This document shows, one piece after another, positions 1-5,102 of a stretch of 5,102 bases of DNA (positions are counted from its first letter, which is position 1; each line of letters opens with the position of its first letter). Position numbers and translations under genes: made by a program. The notes beneath the pieces are model-generated. The model worked only from the letters and a program-made list of their open reading frames with translations, did no database searches and was not told the origin of the DNA. Source of the DNA: a virus. Lineage: Duplodnaviria > Heunggongvirae > Uroviricota > Caudoviricetes. Location of the stretch: IMG/VR virus record IMGVR_UViG_2547132272_000019; one strand, given 5' to 3'.

Positions 1-106
1 TCGCAATGACGAGATTTATCGCCGTCAGCGACAGATGAAGGACGTGCTGGATAGCCTTAATAATCTTGCCGACATCCGCGCTTTTCAGGCTGGAGAGTCA
101 GAATGA
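1..106 (+). CDS. 3' end of an upstream gene (C-terminal 34 codons, ...RNDEIYRRQRQMKDVLDSLNNLADIRAFQAGESE*); start lies outside the window; product unknown
   Basis: Open frame from position 2 to a TGA stop at 104-106. The stop overlaps the ATG at 103-105 of the next gene (ATGA), indicating translational coupling in one operon. Confidence 0.5.
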   Translation, partial: RNDEIYRRQRQMKDVLDSLNNLADIRAFQAGESE

Positions 107-816
107 AATGGGAAAAGGCAATTCTGCGCCCGTCAGCCATGAACATTAAATGCTCTGTGGTTTGCCTGCATCCATGGTCAGAAAATACCGGAAACATCAA
201 ACCATCGGGGCGTTATCTCAGCCCCGAAAATGCTGTATCTGCACTTTTACCCTATCTGAAAGAAAACACAGAAAAGGACATTGTGGCGCTGTTATTTTGC
301 GCTCCTTCTGCTGGCGAGTTTTTATCACTCGCCAGGCAATTTTCAGGCGCATTTCCGTTGCCGGAGGTGGGACGAATGTCCCGCATGATCTCCAGCCAGC
401 TTTCACTGGCCATCAGCAGAATGCAAATCCCCGCCAGACCGGCAACATCACTTCCGGAACCGATAATGCTGTCGACACAGACCACTCGCAGCATGTCGCT
501 GGCGGCAACCATTGCACAGGCAGCCACTCCTGCCGCCACATCACCGGAAACACTGTCATCATCACTGCATCAGTTCATGAATGCGAGAGATAAAGCTCTA
601 CAGGAAATCGCTGATCAGCAGGCTGCACTCCGGCAAAAATTTTGCCCGGTGTGGCGCTTTTGCTACAAGGGAGCCCTCAGCCAGGCCGCAGTGCTGATAC
701 AAAAAAACATCCCACACCCTGAGTGGGTTTTTACAGCTGTGATGCTGTTCGTCGGCGATGATCTCTCATCACTAAGGGAGGCACTACATGACCCAGATGA
801 TTGTCCTTGCGCTTGA
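103..816 (+). CDS. hypothetical protein, 237 aa, with a central Ser/Thr/Ala/Pro-rich low-complexity segment; possibly part of a phage-tail-like module
   Basis: ATG 103 overlaps the upstream stop (ATGA). GGAG at 92-95 sits 7 nt upstream. Same strand and coupled with the following genes. No family recognised from the sequence. Confidence 0.55.
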   Translation: MKWEKAILRPSAMNIKCSVVCLHPWSENTGNIKPSGRYLSPENAVSALLPYLKENTEKDIVALLFCAPSAGEFLSLARQFSGAFPLPEVGRMSRMISSQLSLAISRMQIPARPATSLPEPIMLSTQTTRSMSLAATIAQAATPAATSPETLSSSLHQFMNARDKALQEIADQQAALRQKFCPVWRFCYKGALSQAAVLIQKNIPHPEWVFTAVMLFVGDDLSSLREALHDPDDCPCA

Positions 817-1363
817 CGGGGAAGCCATTCTGCTGCGCAACATCACCGTCAGCGCCACCATGCAACTACCGGACAAAGATATGTCCGGACAGTCAACCAG
901 CACCACGAGCGCCCAGCAGGGAAGCAAGGCTAAAGAGCTGCGCGTGTCGGGGGTTATTGATTTTAACGATGAAGCTATTCTGACCCGTATTTTTCAGCTT
1001 GCGGAGGCAACAGAAAGCAATGGCGCGAAAAAAACATATCGCATTGCTAACGCTACCGCGAAGGCAATCAATATGCGACAGGGGGTATTTTCTGGTGGCA
1101 TTGATGCCACGGAACAACAGGGAAAAATGCACTGGCAGGTCACCTTTACTCTCAGGGAAAAATTAAGCGTGCCAGAGAAAGCGTCTGCACGTAGCGGTTC
1201 GCAGAAAACCATCGCCAGACAGCAGACCCAGAACGGTAGCGAACAGGCACCAGACAAAGGCATGAATACGCAAAGTTCGTTCTGGAAAAAAATCAATGAT
1301 GCCGTTGGCTCTGGTCTGGATGCTGTTGGTATCGGGAGCGTGAAAGAGGAAGGGAAAACATGA
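788..1363 (+). CDS. hypothetical protein, 191 aa; possibly part of a phage-tail-like module
   Basis: Strong Shine-Dalgarno AAGGGAGG at about 773-780, 7 nt before ATG 788. The TGA stop at 1361-1363 overlaps the ATG 1360 of the next gene (ATGA). The 29-nt overlap with the previous gene is consistent with an operon. Confidence 0.65.
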   Translation: MTQMIVLALDGEAILLRNITVSATMQLPDKDMSGQSTSTTSAQQGSKAKELRVSGVIDFNDEAILTRIFQLAEATESNGAKKTYRIANATAKAINMRQGVFSGGIDATEQQGKMHWQVTFTLREKLSVPEKASARSGSQKTIARQQTQNGSEQAPDKGMNTQSSFWKKINDAVGSGLDAVGIGSVKEEGKT

Positions 1364-3057
1364 AATTGATACAACGCTGCATGATTAATGGCGAACGGGT
1401 GGAAATTGCCGATATAAACCTTGTTCTTACCCTGAATGCTGCCGGTCGTGGCTTCATTTCTGTTAATAATCTGTCACCAGAAAAAAGCCTTGCCGGCGCA
1501 ATGGTACAAATTGATCTCGGCCGTGACGGTGAAGTCTGGCGCTATTTCTCCGGCTACGTTGAACGCGACCAACCCGCCGAAAATGGTTCGCGCCGCCTTT
1601 TTATCCGTGAAGCAGCTGCTGTGCTGGATTTTGATTTCCCCTGCTCCATGCAACACCCGACGTTGCGGGAGGTGTTAGATAATCTGGGACGACAAAGCGG
1701 CATCGTTTTTATCACCCCGGACGCGGATTATGTCAACACACCAACCCCCTACATCACCCACAGCGGCAGCGGAACGCAGCTACTCAGCCAGCTGGGGCGC
1801 GCATTCAGTATCAGCGATTACGTCTGGCACCCAATGCCGGACGGTTCTGTATTTGTGGGAAGCGCCGCTGATTCACGATTTGCCAGTATTACGATGCCGG
1901 ATATTCCGCAACAGTACGCTCTCGGGCAAAGCGGCGGAAACAGCATCGACATCATGTTCATGGAAACTGTGCGACCGGGCGTGAATCTTCCCGCCGGGCG
2001 TATTACCCGCGTAGCCCTCAACAACGAGAAAATGACTCTGACGTGGGAGCGCCTTACCGTCACGGGCAGCCCTGTCTCCAAATCACCATTACGCAGACAG
2101 ATGGAAACACAGTTCCCGGAACTGGCCAGCGGCACACTACACACCAGGCTGGCGCGCGTCATTGCACCAACGGAATCCGCCACCCTGGGCGATGTGGCCG
2201 ACAGCTTCCGTCCACGCTACGCCGTGGACGTGCAACTGCTCGATGAGGACGGCAACGATAAAAGCGATACGCCTGTTTACCCGGCAGTCCCACTCCCCGT
2301 CCCGATGGCTGGTAGCGAGGCGGGATGTTTTGCCTACCCGCCGGCAGGCACCATCGTGGAAATATCTAACATTGAAGGGCGCCCGGATAAACCTGTTATC
2401 AGGCAAATCTTACCCGCTGGCCATAACCTGCCTGATGTAAAGCCCGGCGAACAACTGCAGCAACAGCGCGCAGAAGTGTTTCAGCGCGTCACGACTGACG
2501 GAAGCTGGCACAGAGAAACAGACCAGCAAATCAGGGAGCAGTCAGCCACCCGCACAATCAACAGTGATGCAGAAGAGCGCACCACAACAACCAGAACAAC
2601 CACAGTACGGGCAAACGACATAACCAGTGTTCTGGGAACCAGCAAGCTGGCGGCAGGACAAATAGAGCACCTTACTACCGGCCATTACGCGATCGCAGCC
2701 AGCGAGCATATCCAGATGGTAGCGCAGGATTTGCTGACTAAACTCAAAGGAGCAATATCCACGATTGAGCAGGACCTGACTGAAAACGTGGGAGGCCGCA
2801 GAATATGCCGGGCGGACGGCGGTCTGAAGTTTACAGCCCCGACAGTATTTATTGGTCGCGGTGGCTCACGGGAAAAATCCGAACTTAATCTGCTGACGTT
2901 GTTGATTGATATTCTGGATCTGATTCAATTGCTGGCCACGCACACAGCAAACCACACCCACAGCAACACTGGCGCACCAATGAACAGCGGCGAACTTGCC
3001 GCAGATGCCCTGCAGGCTACGAGCCTGCGCGAAAAATACGGCGACCTTATCGCCTGA
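1360..3057 (+). CDS. 565-aa protein, putative phage tail / baseplate-hub (P2 gpD 'late control D'-like) protein; family assignment tentative
   Basis: Long ORF with SD GAGGAAGGG upstream and an ATGA overlap with the preceding gene. The N-terminal segment INGERVEIADINLVLTLNAAGRGF matches, from memory, the I-x-GE-x-V-x-I-...-L-x-L-...-RGF pattern of gpD-type tail proteins. Contains a TTTTRTTTV low-complexity stretch and a His-rich C-terminus (HTANHTHSNTG). Followed by an intrinsic terminator. Confidence 0.5.
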   Translation: MKLIQRCMINGERVEIADINLVLTLNAAGRGFISVNNLSPEKSLAGAMVQIDLGRDGEVWRYFSGYVERDQPAENGSRRLFIREAAAVLDFDFPCSMQHPTLREVLDNLGRQSGIVFITPDADYVNTPTPYITHSGSGTQLLSQLGRAFSISDYVWHPMPDGSVFVGSAADSRFASITMPDIPQQYALGQSGGNSIDIMFMETVRPGVNLPAGRITRVALNNEKMTLTWERLTVTGSPVSKSPLRRQMETQFPELASGTLHTRLARVIAPTESATLGDVADSFRPRYAVDVQLLDEDGNDKSDTPVYPAVPLPVPMAGSEAGCFAYPPAGTIVEISNIEGRPDKPVIRQILPAGHNLPDVKPGEQLQQQRAEVFQRVTTDGSWHRETDQQIREQSATRTINSDAEERTTTTRTTTVRANDITSVLGTSKLAAGQIEHLTTGHYAIAASEHIQMVAQDLLTKLKGAISTIEQDLTENVGGRRICRADGGLKFTAPTVFIGRGGSREKSELNLLTLLIDILDLIQLLATHTANHTHSNTGAPMNSGELAADALQATSLREKYGDLIA

Positions 3058-3095
3058 TCACCTGGACATAAAAGCCACATAAACGCCCATCACAC

Positions 3096-3123
3096 AACGC
3101 ACGGCTTCGGCCGTGCGTTTTCA
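3096..3123 (+). terminator. Rho-independent terminator of the + strand operon
   Basis: Perfect 10-bp inverted repeat aacgcacggc (3096-3105) / gccgtgcgtt (3110-3119) with a TTCG tetraloop, followed by a T-run; lies 39 nt after the stop at 3057. Confidence 0.7.
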
Positions 3124-3188
3124 TATCTGCCACCTGATTAATGCGTTCTGCGCGCCATTCTGGCGCTGTATGCGCACACCGCGTAAAC

Positions 3189-3218
3189 GGTGTGACGTAA
3201 AGCGTGAGGTGACGTAAA
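3189..3218. repeat. tandem direct repeat GGTG(T)GACGTAAA, two copies about 19 bp apart; possible protein-binding sites
   Basis: ggtgtgacgtaaa at 3189-3201 and ggtgacgtaaa at 3208-3218; a further CGTAAA at 3182-3187 sits in the loop of a 7-bp hairpin (cacaccg/cggtgtg, 3175-3194). Confidence 0.4.
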
Positions 3219-3324
3219 CCGCGCTACCCCCTCCAACCCGCGGGTTTTGTGTCGAAACACTTTTTCAGTTTTCTGCCGTGCAAAAATGACCGCCAGCCCG
3301 CGCAGCGACTGAGGGAAAAGCGAA

Positions 3325-3583
3325 GATCTGAAATTTCACGCTTTGAAATTTTTTGCAGTTTTCAGCGAGTTTTTTACGATCTCATAAATGGCAGGAGCAA
3401 TGAAACCGCATGATATTAAAAGAGTTTTCATACTTTACGCGAGACAAAAAAACGATCACGAAAGGATCGCATCAAACAACCATCAAACAGCGAAGTCAGA
3501 CGCGGCGCGGCCTGCGTAAAATTGAGAGTCAAAATTAAACTGAAAAAAGGATCAATACCGCGCCTCGATCGCGCATGACGATC
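3325..3583. repeat. GATC-dense, AT-rich block (7 Dam sites in about 260 bp) with short direct repeats
   Basis: GATC at 3325, 3378, 3454, 3465, 3550, 3567 and 3580, versus about 8 in the remaining ~4.8 kb. Includes catcaaaca x2 (3469-3491), an imperfect repeat ttttt(g)cagttttc (3262-3282 vs 3350-3370), and an A7 run plus 5-bp hairpin at 3446-3469. Confidence 0.5.
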
Positions 3584-3600
3584 TATGCAGCAACAGGACG

Positions 3601-3623
3601 AAAAAAACCGGCGCGAACGCCGG
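3601..3623 (-). terminator. Rho-independent terminator on the - strand
   Basis: GC-rich 6-bp stem ccggcg (3608-3613) / cgccgg (3618-3623) with a CGAA loop. On the - strand it is followed by U7 (the + strand A-run at 3601-3607); on the + strand there is no U-tail. Confidence 0.55.
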
Positions 3624-3664
3624 CGGAAGCATGTATCAAATGCGTGACTGAATAATGTCTGCGG
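3601..3664 (-). ncRNA. candidate ~60-nt small RNA, divergent from the hok promoter; function unknown
   Basis: A - strand promoter-like pair lies about 7 nt upstream of the predicted start, and the strong - strand terminator at 3601-3623 lies about 60 nt downstream. No ORF with an RBS in between. Confidence 0.35.
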
Positions 3665-3670
3665 TCGGGA

Positions 3671-3700
3671 ATTTTACATCAGAAGGCTGATAAGTCTCAA
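3671..3700 (-). promoter_or_regulatory. sigma70-like promoter for the candidate sRNA
   Basis: Read on the - strand: -35 TTGAGA (+ strand 3695-3700), 18-bp spacer, -10 TAAAAT (+ strand 3671-3676). Back-to-back with the hok promoter. Confidence 0.35.
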
Positions 3701-3704
3701 CGGA

Positions 3705-3734
3705 TTGAAACAAGGGAAAAAACCAGGCTAGAAT
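3705..3734 (+). promoter_or_regulatory. putative hok mRNA promoter
   Basis: -35 TTGAAA (3705-3710), 18-bp spacer, -10 TAGAAT (3729-3734). Predicted start near 3741 coincides with the 5' element that pairs with the mRNA 3' end. Confidence 0.4.
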
Positions 3735-3784
3735 TCGCGCGGGTGCCTTTCGGCTGATGGCTGGAGGGAATACCCGAAGGCCGA

Positions 3785-3970
3785 ATGTGGAAAGGCCCCG
3801 AGTCAACTTTAACGTTAACCCGAGGCCCTAGCCATACAACCTTCGCAAGTCGTAGGTTAGCGCCTCCCCGAAAAAGGAGCAAGCGCTATGTCGCAAAAAT
3901 CGCTTACGGCCATTACGTTCTGCGTAACGGCAATCCTCATCATCTGGATGCTACACGGTTCACTGTGTGA
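3785..3970 (+). CDS. mok-like overlapping reading frame (61 codons) for translational coupling to hok
   Basis: ATG 3785 preceded by GAAGG (3776-3780). The frame overlaps the hok start and ends inside hok in a different frame, matching hok/mok architecture. No independent homology recognised. Confidence 0.35.
   Translation: MWKGPESTLTLTRGPSHTTFASRRLAPPRKRSKRYVAKIAYGHYVLRNGNPHHLDATRFTV
3786..3847 (-). ncRNA. Sok-like cis-antisense antitoxin RNA (about 60 nt); boundaries approximate
   Basis: Expected by hok/sok architecture. A - strand promoter candidate overlaps the hok SD. The extended hairpin at 3794-3827 is fully paired only on the - strand transcript (G-U wobbles there are C/A mismatches on the + strand) and is followed by UUU on the - strand. 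Confidence 0.3.
3854..3882 (-). promoter_or_regulatory. candidate Sok promoter
   Basis: Read on the - strand: -35 TTGCTC (+ strand 3877-3882), 17-bp spacer, -10 TAACCT (+ strand 3854-3859). It overlaps the hok SD region. An alternative pair is -35 TTGTAT (3834-3839) with -10 TAACGT (3812-3817). Confidence 0.25.
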
Positions 3971-4028
3971 GATACGGATGAGCTTCTGGGGAGCGGAGTT
4001 TGCGGCGTTCTTACAATGTAGACAGTAA
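3888..4028 (+). CDS. hok: Hok/Gef-family type I toxin, 46 aa (MSQKSLTAITFCVTAILIIWMLHGSLCEIRMSFWGAEFAAFLQCRQ); specific paralog not determined
   Basis: AAGGAG at 3874-3879, 8 nt before ATG 3888. N-terminal hydrophobic transmembrane stretch, then the Hok hallmark SLCEIR and a C-terminal E-x-AAF-L motif (compare Hok ...[22 protein letters not shown]). The ORF is below the size cut-off of the supplied track. Confidence 0.75.
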   Translation: MSQKSLTAITFCVTAILIIWMLHGSLCEIRMSFWGAEFAAFLQCRQ

Positions 4029-4114
4029 GAAAACCGCGACGGGGAAGGCAACTTCCCCGTCAATCGGTTGCCAGGGTAAGGCCGATAAGGCACCCTATAC
4101 ACATCCCAAAGCAG

Positions 4115-4151
4115 AAACCCGCAGCGTAAAACTGCGGGTTTTCTTTTTCTT
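4115..4151. terminator. bidirectional intrinsic terminator shared by the hok mRNA (+) and the convergent yidD-like operon (-)
   Basis: 10-bp stem aaacccgcag (4115-4124) / ctgcgggttt (4132-4141) with loop CGTAAAA. On the + strand it is followed by TCTTTTTCTT; on the - strand by CUGCUUUG. It lies 7 nt from the yidD-like stop at 4158. Confidence 0.65.
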
Positions 4152-4157
4152 ACGCGC

Positions 4158-4391
4158 TCACGATTTGCGACATTTACAAATATGAGGAGGGTAATCTGCA
4201 CCACCATTAGGCGGACGACAGCGATAAATCCGGCTCAATCCTAATCGCCAGCCTTCAAAAAAGCCATAGCGCCTTATTGACACCAAAGTGTAAGCCGAAC
4301 AGCTTGGAGTATAACGACATCTGTTACGAATGCTGGCTGGCGCATGAGCACGATAATAAAGAATCAGACGTATACTAAGCCATTTAAGCAT
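4158..4391 (-). CDS. YidD-family protein (PF01809, putative membrane protein insertion efficiency factor paralog), 77 aa
   Basis: Translation contains the YidD signature ...RCRYTPSCSAY...GW.L...RI.RC.P...GG.D.P and aligns well with E. coli YidD as recalled from memory. Its start overlaps the stop of the upstream 80-aa gene by 8 nt. Confidence 0.7.
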   Translation of the reverse strand: MLKWLSIRLILYYRAHAPASIRNRCRYTPSCSAYTLVSIRRYGFFEGWRLGLSRIYRCRPPNGGADYPPHICKCRKS

Positions 4392-4626
4392 CTGATACTT
4401 TTTTTCTAAAAGTAATCACATAGTATTGAAAAAACTGCGCCTTTCCGCCACCGAAACACCCCGGCTGCTCTTCTATACCAATCGTATCAACCCGTTGAAA
4501 TTCCCAGCCATCCGCCGCCTGTTCATTAACAACATTCTGAAGATATGCAGCAGCTACCCCCGCTTTATTATCTTTTGCCTTTACAGAAATATTCGGCGGC
4601 ACCTGAATCATTTTATAGGTATACAT
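4384..4626 (-). CDS. small conserved hypothetical protein, 80 aa (possibly DUF4177-like)
   Basis: Strong SD AAGGAG 8 nt upstream of ATG 4626. Translationally coupled to the yidD-like gene. Compact globular-looking sequence with a GWE motif; the family call is from memory only. Confidence 0.55.
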   Translation of the reverse strand: MYTYKMIQVPPNISVKAKDNKAGVAAAYLQNVVNEQAADGWEFQRVDTIGIEEQPGCFGGGKAQFFQYYVITFRKKVSDA

Positions 4627-4772
4627 TACCTGAGCTCCTTTAATAAAAAAGACAGTAATAAACGCCCTAAAACAGCCCGCACCTCACGATGCGAGCATTA
4701 GATCACTATGGCAATATGTGGACAACGCGAAAAATAATCCATTATTTTTCATTGCATTACAGCAGTTTTCGT

Positions 4773-4788
4773 GCCACCCGAAGGTGGC
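4773..4788. other. GC-rich stem-loop in the ytfP / downstream-gene intergenic region
   Basis: gccacc (4773-4778) / ggtggc (4783-4788) with a CGAA loop, just after the ytfP stop. No U-tail on the - strand, so it is not a canonical ytfP terminator; it may be an RNA-stability or attenuator element. Confidence 0.3.
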
Positions 4789-4797
4789 GTGTTTATA

Positions 4798-5102
4798 TTA
4801 TGACTTATCCCTGTCTAACCAGTCGCCGCTTTCAATCAGCGTTAATCCATCGACGGGTCGTTGATAAACGTACATCCATGCACTCCCGTACGGCGTCTGA
4901 ATCAACTGGCGCGCGTATTCACCGCCCCTGGTGCGCAAGGCATCAAGTTCGGCCAGCGTGGCGTTGTCAATACGATAAACTTCACCGTGTACCGTTCCGT
5001 TTCCCGGAACTGCGCCTGGATAGTGGCCCAGGCTATACAACTGGTAGTTATCGATACTGAAATCGCCCAGCAACTGGGCATTGGTCATCCAGTGGCTGGG
5101 GG
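4798..5102 (-). CDS. ytfP: gamma-glutamylcyclotransferase-family (AIG2/GGCT-like) protein YtfP, 3' portion; start lies beyond the window end
   Basis: Translation ...SHWMTNAQLLGDFSIDNYQLYSLGHYPGAVPGNGTVHGEVYRIDNATLAELDALRTRGGEYARQLIQTPYGSAWMYVYQRPVDGLTLIESGDWLDRDKS* matches E. coli YtfP as recalled from memory. The frame stays open to the window edge upstream of the track's Met at 5088. Confidence 0.8.
   Translation of the reverse strand, partial: PSHWMTNAQLLGDFSIDNYQLYSLGHYPGAVPGNGTVHGEVYRIDNATLAELDALRTRGGEYARQLIQTPYGSAWMYVYQRPVDGLTLIESGDWLDRDKS

Follow-up and report, generated by a model that had tools for sequence, protein, structure and literature searches.

The window, as we call the whole stretch of 5,102 nucleotides analyzed here, consists entirely of prophage DNA from position 1 to position 4772, and this DNA is the attR-proximal (right-hand) end of the prophage. 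We are confident that the element is a Peduoviridae (P2/HP1-like) prophage that was integrated by a tyrosine integrase at the ytfP gene of the host, in its transcription terminator. This gene (GGACT/gamma-glutamylcyclotransferase family; PF06094, 7.8e-22) occupies positions 4798-5102 on the minus strand, with its 5′ part beyond the window, and its nucleotide identity to the ytfP genes of all complete E. coli genomes was 96-97%.

A preliminary description of this DNA had placed a yidD-like/DUF pair, a hok-type locus and a tail-like operon next to ytfP, and profile searches of the ORFs of the window found each of them where it had been claimed. Moving left from ytfP, one meets first the DUF4177-like/YidD-like pair, then a hok/mok/sok-type locus that looks intact, and then the baseplate genes of the phage. 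The hok locus and the tail operon had been thought to be accessory, which agrees with their presence in 22 of 5426 complete E. coli genomes, always elsewhere on the chromosome. A check for an ancestral order found the exact gene order of the window in none of the 5426.

At the left edge, positions 1-106 (plus strand) hold the 3′ end of a DUF4376 gene of the tail fiber region, which runs off the window and aligns to the end of the corresponding CDS of the AJ1 prophage (locus L001, 11531-12106). On the same strand follow a late-operon gene for a 237-aa phage protein (103-816; PHROG 31292, 3.6e-74, and PHROG 1677, with no family found in a Pfam search), a gene for a 191-aa HP1 ORF34-like baseplate complex protein (788-1363; HP1_ORF34, PF25759, 8.3e-54, 182 bits; PHROG 1398), and the last late gene of the prophage, which encodes a 565-aa baseplate protein (1360-3057; PHROG 2258 baseplate, 772 bits). 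The 565-aa protein showed about 47% amino acid identity to counterparts in Salmonella SW5/SI7, Cronobacter ESSI-2 and Yersinia 324, and it also matched Vibrio, Haemophilus and Pasteurella phages, that is, the HP1-like branch; NCBIfam VgrG models scored far under their cut-offs on this protein. The matches to PF25759 and PHROG 2258 and the HP1-like relatives identify these as P2/HP1-family structural genes, as in Peduoviridae, and the AJ1 and E7-1N7 relatives of the prophage have P2-family capsid, portal, terminase, Cox, C and gpA genes.

The late genes are followed by a conserved spacer of about 650 nt (3058-3704), which was present in only 51 of 5426 genomes and was never annotated with a gene. 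Across four prophages, the alignment showed no variation in its positions 3154-3259. The late operon probably ends in a terminator formed by a GC-rich inverted repeat (3097-3118) with TTTT behind it; this repeat was read from the sequence and is absent from the list produced by the promoter/terminator scan. The spacer also contains a candidate minus-strand RNA of 60 nt at about 3664-3600. The spacer had no Rfam match, and inspection by eye revealed neither a P2/186-type cos sequence nor a TGT-N12-ACA late-promoter motif in it.

A hok/mok/sok-type type I toxin-antitoxin module was located at 3705-4152 on the plus strand by Pfam, PHROG, fold prediction and the promoter/terminator scan. It consists of a promoter-like site (3705-3734), the 5′ end of the hok mRNA (at about 3741), a 61-aa mok-like ORF (3785-3970) that overlaps the start of hok in another frame, the Hok/Gef ORF (3888-4028; PF01848 at 30 bits, above the cut-off of 22; PHROG 251 at 4e-22), a 3′ fold-back element (4080-4095) complementary to 3741-3755, and a terminator hairpin with a T-run (4114-4142). 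Both the MFE and the centroid structure predicted for the RNA have 3741-3755 base-paired with 4080-4095 (-173.5 kcal/mol, z -7.2). The toxin ORF, the overlapping mok frame and the 5′-3′ fold-back pairing of hok/sok loci were thus all found. The NCBIfam HokA and Hok models gave 33 and 21 bits, under their cut-offs, and the Rfam sok model RF01794 matched 3741-3901 with 36.7 bits (E 9e-6), under the gathering score of 59. Neither the scan nor inspection by eye gave a convincing minus-strand promoter-like site for Sok within 3741-3900. The module is common to P88-type prophages (from 3717) and Stx phages (3713-4095), and as a putative addiction/exclusion module it would penalize loss of the prophage.

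The attachment core is the 14-bp sequence GCCACCCGAAGGTG at 4773-4786, inside the ytfP terminator hairpin (4770-4791), and the phage arm of attR lies at 4627-4772, within a shared block (3717-4772) that matches the end of the record of phage P88. The core was the only 14-mer common to attL and attR of the lysogen CFSAN051542, occurs at either end of the N50 prophage, and opens the record of P88 as its initial 14 bases; the last base of this record is equivalent to position 4772 of the window. The same 14-mer has been reported as the attP of the induced P2-like phage P88 (PMC5285337). Host homology began exactly at 4773 in all 5426 complete E. coli genomes, and the boundary of the prophage is thereby set to the base.

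The window contains the attR core, whereas attL and the integrase were found only in related lysogens, outside the window; a search for an att site and an integrase beyond the window, as had been suggested, was therefore successful in these relatives. A phage integrase was joined to the ppa-side flank in 33 complete E. coli genomes. In the mechanism that we favor, site-specific recombination by a tyrosine integrase, with crossover at the core, placed a P2/HP1-like prophage into the ytfP terminator. The source genome would have an integrase of the P88 type and, to the left at a distance of about 35-40 kb, another copy of the core beside ppa. Integration would strip the U-tract from the ytfP terminator, and a hairpin with a T-run found by the scan at 4696-4675, in the phage arm and on the ytfP strand, may substitute for it. 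The completeness of the prophage and the type of its integrase are taken from relatives, as the window holds neither integrase nor attL. That the att site and integrase are shared with P88, which has a P2-like tail where the window is HP1-like, rests on the arm and cargo, which are 88-97% identical, and on E7-1N7, the baseplate protein of which shows no more than 70% identity.

The earlier statement that the K-12 neighborhood contains chpS-chpB was right, because the annotated K-12 record has the order tamB-ytfP-chpS-chpB-ppa. The window contained no ChpS or ChpB ORF in the ORF list or by Pfam. Among the 5426 complete E. coli genomes, chpSB was present in 3086 (57%), roughly 2100 (~39%) had a filler allele that is shorter by about 510 bp, and larger inserts between ppa and ytfP, such as esiB, a bgl-like PTS operon and prophages, were present in roughly 225 (~4%). 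The ppa-ytfP gap is therefore genuinely variable in E. coli, and to this extent the idea of a hotspot stood. Its other part, that addiction modules such as chpSB and hok, among others, replace one another as alleles at one position by general recombination downstream of ytfP, is highly improbable. Although the several states of the gap are what such a process would leave, the hok locus lies inside a prophage that is bounded by a defined att core and that integrates site-specifically at this core, whereas chpSB is situated some 180 bp from this core, in the direction of ppa. Furthermore, the breakpoint between the chpSB and filler alleles (ATAAATAAAC ... GTTTTACCCC) differs from the phage crossover point. 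Both chpSB and a hok-bearing prophage were present in 7 complete genomes, and therefore they are not alternative alleles; in E7-1N7, the order is ppa-chpB-chpS-int-...-HP1-like tail-YafO-hok-yidD-DUF4177-ytfP, with chpSB, a YafO-type module and hok all at one locus. The chpSB cassette, which is present in some genomes and absent from others, is a polymorphism of its own and is located on that side of the core which faces ppa.

Between the hok module and the phage arm is a convergent cargo operon of two overlapping minus-strand genes (overlap of 8 nt), the first encoding an 80-aa DUF4177-like protein (4384-4626; PHROG 12383 at 1.7e-40) and the second a 77-aa YidD-family paralogue (4158-4391; PF01809, 8e-18, 64 bits against a cut-off of 27; TIGR00278, 67 bits against a cut-off of 40). 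On the DUF4177-like protein, PF13783 scored 22.1 bits over residues 2-45 only and did not reach the gathering cut-off of 25, and RefSeq labels its homologues "DUF4177 domain-containing". No sequence relative of this protein was found in the PDB; an AlphaFold model predicted from the single sequence (pLDDT 77.8, beta-alpha-beta-beta) had no Foldseek PDB match better than E 0.019, with only generic dodecin-like/S6-like folds. To judge from titles and abstracts, none of the papers found to have DUF4177 in their full text is on this gene pair. The cargo operon is co-oriented with ytfP, and therefore read-through from ytfP is possible. The housekeeping yidD gene, which encodes a membrane protein insertion efficiency factor, sits in the rnpA-yidD-yidC operon. 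In contrast, the gene in the window, which does match the YidD profiles, follows a DUF4177-like gene inside a prophage; it belongs to the cargo of the phage and is not a housekeeping gene that has been displaced.

In other genera, yidD was directly downstream of a DUF4177-like gene in 11 of 13 loci, and the two genes of the operon are kept side by side in 10 genera or more; a scan of genome contigs found the pair only in other genera, where it is flanked by ordinary chromosomal genes. This context is what would be expected if the pair were a small chromosomal islet and the phage ended at the hairpin 4114-4142 as its real attachment site, and it was also found by BLAST that the homology of AJ1-type prophages ends at 4142 and that of YafO-type prophages begins at 4114. 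Such an arrangement is nevertheless barely credible. Unoccupied E. coli sites rejoin at 4773, not at 4148, and in none of the 5426 genomes was ytfP-DUF4177-yidD directly followed by chpS or ppa. The pair was found beside ytfP in 20 complete E. coli genomes, and all 20 are among the 33 with a phage integrase at the ppa-side flank. The pair is also part of the record of the induced phage P88, and the hairpin junction precedes different cargo in prophages at pdxB|flk and raiA, within those prophages. The DUF4177-like gene is the terminal gene of 9 predicted IMG/VR prophages of 31-35 kb, and the exact protein was indexed in 1303 blocks of a collection of public assemblies. We conclude that the yidD-like and DUF4177-like genes are phage cargo inside attR and not, as had been proposed, the occupants of the position of chpSB or a chromosomal counterpart of it.

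Because the window spans only the last 4.8 kb of the prophage, and degraded P2-like remnants are common (ETEC1732 and ETEC1734 have truncated integrases, and locus L007 is a phage fragment), the element might be a decayed remnant that keeps only its right end rather than a complete, inducible prophage. This is unlikely, as every ORF in the window is intact, the gene sets of E7-1N7 and AJ1 are complete, and the closest relative, locus L011, reproduces the window at 98.6% identity and has, beyond it, intact tail genes over 10 kb or more. The L011 ytfP gene was only 97.1% identical, and therefore L011 represents the same phage type in another host lineage. The same phage end was also found away from ytfP at loci L005 and L007, which we attribute, tentatively, to rearrangements. 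A Mu-like transposable phage was considered for the occurrence of the tail and hok block at many chromosomal positions and was rejected, as a P2-type integrase together with C and Cox was present in every copy, and every copy occupies a defined intergenic site.

Comparison of the Peduoviridae prophages by BLAST revealed homology boundaries at two points in the right end, one at the promoter of hok, at about 3717, and the other at the hairpin (4114-4142) that separates hok from yidD. The block before the hairpin contains hok, a YafO-type module or both, and the block after it contains the yidD pair, a 93-aa ORF, DUF4875, Com with a methyltransferase, or nothing; this second block remains coupled to the att arm and also, via the junction in the circular phage form, to the type of integrase. 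At pdxB|flk, raiA and serS, the same tail and hok block was found again, there with different cargo at its end. The att-proximal prophage end is, on these alignments, itself a swap slot, and the prophage of the window is a mosaic whose right end is modular: hok, YafO-type modules and other small cassettes are exchanged among tails of the P2-like and HP1-like kinds, and also among different integrase and att types. It is conceivable, but rather doubtful, that the interval from the last late gene to attP is a further exchange hotspot for addiction/exclusion cargo in Escherichia Peduoviridae and that the DUF4177-like/YidD-like operon is an inner-membrane module for lysogenic conversion or phage exclusion.

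Taken together, the apparent toxin-antitoxin hotspot consists of two independent and well-understood processes side by side, the integration of P2-family phages at the ytfP terminator and the chpSB polymorphism. The mechanism of integration is already known, and this is ordinary biology.

P2-like phages have been described as swapping unrelated cargo at fixed positions in conserved genomes, and such hotspots have been named at gpA-portal, downstream of gpL, at integrase-att and at integrase-primase (Rousset et al. 2022, PMC9122126; bioRxiv 10.64898/2026.02.27.708500). The slot described here differs in lying between the last late gene and att, on the non-integrase side, and it is not among the hotspots named in the excerpts of this literature available to us. 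Its contents also differ in being without a PADLOC match: PADLOC-DB 2.0 gave no matches for the YidD-like, DUF4177-like and Hok proteins, nor for the 565-aa and 237-aa proteins.

The hok loci of plasmid R1 and of Stx phages (933W and others) have the same Hok/Gef ORF, overlapping mok-like ORF, fold-back and terminal hairpin as the window, and the nucleotide identity to the Stx-phage loci was 82% over 3713-4095. In contrast to these loci, the hok locus of the window is at the att-proximal end of a Peduoviridae prophage, its leader/sok-target part (3801-3900) is strongly diverged, its Rfam sok score is under the threshold, and its function is a predicted one. The chpSB (chpBIK) pair of K-12 occupies the same ppa-ytfP gap as the prophage, but it is a MazEF-like type II system of an unrelated family, lies across the att core from the window, and is not mutually exclusive with the prophage.

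The closest known phage is P88 (Peduoviridae, Xuanwuvirus), an inducible P2-like phage of E. coli K88, which has the same 14-bp core and the lysogens of which hold the same ppa-ytfP site; only for P88 have excision and virion production been demonstrated by experiment (PMC5285337). Over window positions 3717-4772, which comprise hok, the yidD-like and DUF4177-like genes and the att arm, identity to the final 1056 bases of P88 was 87-88%; in P88, a frameshift splits the yidD-like gene. The tail genes of P88 are of the P2 type, with gpD and ogr beside hok, whereas the prophage of the window has an HP1-like baseplate module and, in place of ogr, the 650-nt conserved spacer.

Host homology of window positions 4096-5102 began only at 4773 when this part was compared by megablast with complete E. 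coli genomes, all of which matched (5426/5426). In the E. coli lysogen CFSAN051542, ppa and ytfP are separated by a full P2-like prophage, and GCCACCCGAAGGTG is the sole 14-mer common to its ppa-side and ytfP-side junctions. This 14-mer bounds the N50 prophage at either end, occurs as a single copy in the window (4773-4786), and opens the record of the inducible P2-like phage P88 as bases 1-14, with the final base of that record corresponding to window position 4772. It has been published as the attP of induced phage P88 (PMC5285337). Because of the start of host homology, the position of the att core, and the ends of the P88 record, the prophage/chromosome boundary is placed at 4772/4773, with 1-4772 being prophage DNA and the sequence from 4773 onward chromosome. 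The att site and integrase for which the preliminary description proposed a search were both found in related lysogens, the former as the core GCCACCCGAAGGTG and the latter joined to the ppa-side flank.

The att core is located inside the ytfP terminator hairpin (4770-4791). Integration would replace the U-tract of this terminator, the ytfP strand being GGTGGCGTTGTTTTTTGCG in K-12 and GGTGGCACGAAAACTGC in the window (4760-4791), and the phage arm carries a further hairpin and T-run on the ytfP strand (4675-4696). Because the cargo operon and ytfP are co-oriented, read-through from ytfP into the cargo operon would be possible.

An ORF list and profile searches showed that every element named in the preliminary description is present at the locus. 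The plus strand contains phage baseplate genes (103-3057; HP1_ORF34, 8e-54; PHROG 2258, 772 bits) and a 46-aa Hok/Gef ORF (3888-4028; profile matches, and a leader with a sub-threshold Rfam sok match). The minus strand contains a YidD-family ORF (4158-4391; PF01809, 8e-18; TIGR00278, 67 bits relative to a cut-off of 40), an overlapping 80-aa DUF4177-like ORF (4384-4626; 22.1 bits, just under the Pfam cut-off of 25; PHROG 12383, 1.7e-40), and ytfP (4798-5102; GGACT family, 7.8e-22). The AJ1 copy of the 565-aa baseplate protein (L001 13360-15057, equivalent to window 1360-3057) is named 'type VI secretion system Vgr family protein' by RefSeq, which is misleading: NCBIfam VgrG models gave 17-20 bits against cut-offs of 122-186, and the PHROG baseplate family gave 772 bits.

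The yidD-like/DUF pair, which the preliminary description placed at the position corresponding to chpSB, is not the chromosomal counterpart of chpSB: the pair adjoins ytfP in 20 complete genomes, and 20/20 of these are among the 33 in which a phage integrase is joined to the ppa-side flank. The P88 record holds hok, the DUF4177-like gene, and a frameshifted yidD-like gene, and nine prophages predicted in IMG/VR (31-35 kb) have the DUF4177-like gene as their exact end. In the assembly collection, 1303 blocks are indexed as having the identical 80-aa protein, and in 10 of 10 places among the matches listed it borders a phage right end, with ogr and gpD in nine and HP1-like baseplate genes in L011, the locus closest to the window. 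The yidD-like pair and hok therefore belong to the phage cargo.

The split yidD-like gene of P88 (L015, NC_026014.1, 35210-35432) is unannotated, and is either a pseudogene or a sequencing error in the record. This phage right end (DUF4177/yidD, YafO or hok, and ogr) was found away from ytfP at L005 and L007, in L007 facing another ogr and a UDG remnant; this placement is probably due to an inversion or to a tandem or rearranged prophage. Adjacency and gene order of the pair are conserved across at least 10 genera (Dryocola, Enterobacter, Lonsdalea, Ewingella, Pantoea, Halomonas, Vibrio, Cellvibrio, Alteromonas, and Methyloligella; L019-L030), which range from Enterobacterales to Vibrio, Halomonas, and an alphaproteobacterial MAG and in which its neighbours are mostly chromosomal and phage linkage is found only in Dryocola (integrase) and Ewingella (HP1-like tail). 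For this pair, PADLOC gave no match, a PDB search gave no relative, and a fold search was uninformative.

The K-12 neighbourhood given in the preliminary description, with chpS-chpB between ytfP and ppa, agrees with the annotated K-12 record, which has tamB-ytfP-chpS-chpB-ppa. The order ppa-chpB-chpS-ytfP is present in 3086 of the 5426 genomes, a short filler replaces chpSB in about 2100 (an allele ~510 bp shorter), and ppa and ytfP are further apart in about 225. Occupants of the large gaps include an esiB pseudogene (SSGNw2, L018), a prophage together with a bgl-like PTS operon (N50, L017), and prophages alone; esiB encodes a secretory IgA-binding protein, and the N50 operon is of the PTS/GH1/LicT type. 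Integrases of only 75-79% nucleotide identity are also found at the ytfP attB (H244-H248). The chpSB/filler breakpoints lie after ATAAATAAAC and before GTTTTACCCC, ~150 bp or more from the att core in the direction of ppa, and chpS-chpB is directly beside the integrase in seven lysogens. Therefore, the gap varies by two independent routes, and hok is not an allele of chpSB. The hotspot proposal holds insofar as the ppa-ytfP gap is truly variable, but not in treating hok and chpSB as alternative modules at the same position, given those seven lysogens.

BLAST boundaries delimited two blocks at the prophage right end. Block A comprises the hok module, runs from 3717 to about 4147, and is common to P88-type prophages; other prophages have a YafO toxin and a 208-aa partner in this position, and E7-1N7 has both YafO and hok. 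Block B extends from 4112 or 4114 to the att core and contains the yidD pair in the window (97% identity to YafO-type prophages, ~90% to CFSAN051542), a 93-aa ORF in N50, DUF4875 in AJ1, Com and a DNA methyltransferase in MB07081, and nothing in STEC316. The junction of the blocks is the hairpin at 4114-4142, between the convergent hok and yidD, which was also scored as a terminator after hok. The content of the late-end/att slot is exchanged as blocks, a hok or YafO module followed by variable cargo up to the core. In YafO-type P2 prophages, the interval from ogr to the 208-aa gene retains 100 in-frame codons of the 565-aa HP1-like baseplate gene (L005, L006, L008, L013, and L014 at ~11612-11913, equivalent to window 2254-2553; aa 299-398, 85-86% identity), a scar left by past recombination of the P2-type with the HP1-like tail.

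No sequenced phage has a close relative of the tail module: the highest-scoring matches are in the HP1-like branch, at ~47% amino acid identity. In contrast to these, 22 E. coli genomes hold the same tail module and hok at 91-97.5% identity. In strain AJ1, this module is part of a prophage located between pdxB and flk. The prophage further encodes a P2-type integrase, C, Cox, gpA, ParM, and a P2-family capsid, and its ogr is next to the portal gene. At the ytfP site, a complete analogue is found in E. coli E7-1N7, with the order ppa-chpB-chpS-int-C-cox-...-HP1-like tail-ORF34 baseplate-581 aa-(259 aa + YafO toxin)-hok-yidD-DUF4177-ytfP. This locus (L034, NZ_CP134805.1) has three TA-type modules (chromosomal chpSB, prophage YafO, and prophage hok); a gene for a ParE-like protein is present in this prophage as well, and the 259-aa YafO partner is named 'SufA' by PGAP, probably a misnomer. 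L011 is 98.6% identical to the window and its ytfP alone only 97.1%, and therefore the same phage type resides in different host lineages.

The hok locus looks intact. A scan found a promoter-like site at 3705-3734 (10/12), setting the mRNA 5′ end near 3741, and a mok-like ORF (3785-3970) overlaps the start of hok; an antisense (Sok) promoter was not located at this locus. The predicted mRNA fold pairs 3741-3755 with 4080-4095 (-173.5 kcal/mol, z -7.2), which is the known fold-back pattern of hok mRNAs. The leader at 3801-3900, presumed to include the Sok target, has 41 variable columns and varies more than any other 100-nt stretch of the 4.1 kb that the window has in common with three related prophages, which fits diversification of antisense specificity.

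The spacer that separates hok from the last tail gene (3058-3704, ~650 nt) has a gene annotated in none of the 51 E. coli genomes holding it, and an Rfam search of it gave no match. When four prophages differing at 11% of columns are aligned, the longest stretch free of variation (3154-3259, 106 nt) falls in this spacer, which also has CGTAAA three times (3182, 3196, and 3213), the palindrome ACACCG-N6-CGGTGT (3176-3193), and the hairpin AACCCGCGGGTT followed by TT (3235-3248). A promoter-like site on the minus strand (3700-3671, 10/12) precedes a terminator-like hairpin (3624-3607), and this region could produce a ~60-nt candidate RNA divergent from hok; the hairpin is kept among relatives, and the -10 element is not kept in MB07081.

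The att site, phage P88, and hok loci carried by phages have been documented before, and the mechanism is an ordinary one, the site-specific integration of a prophage whose cargo is modular. What is new is the mosaic of an HP1-like tail with a P88-type att block, which has no representative among sequenced phages. P2 hotspots are named, in the portions of the literature available, at positions other than the late-end/att slot, and this slot may merit a census. The hok module of Stx phages is alike over 3713-4095 of the window. In P88 and P88-type prophages, hok follows ogr, whereas in the window it follows the HP1-like tail and the spacer.
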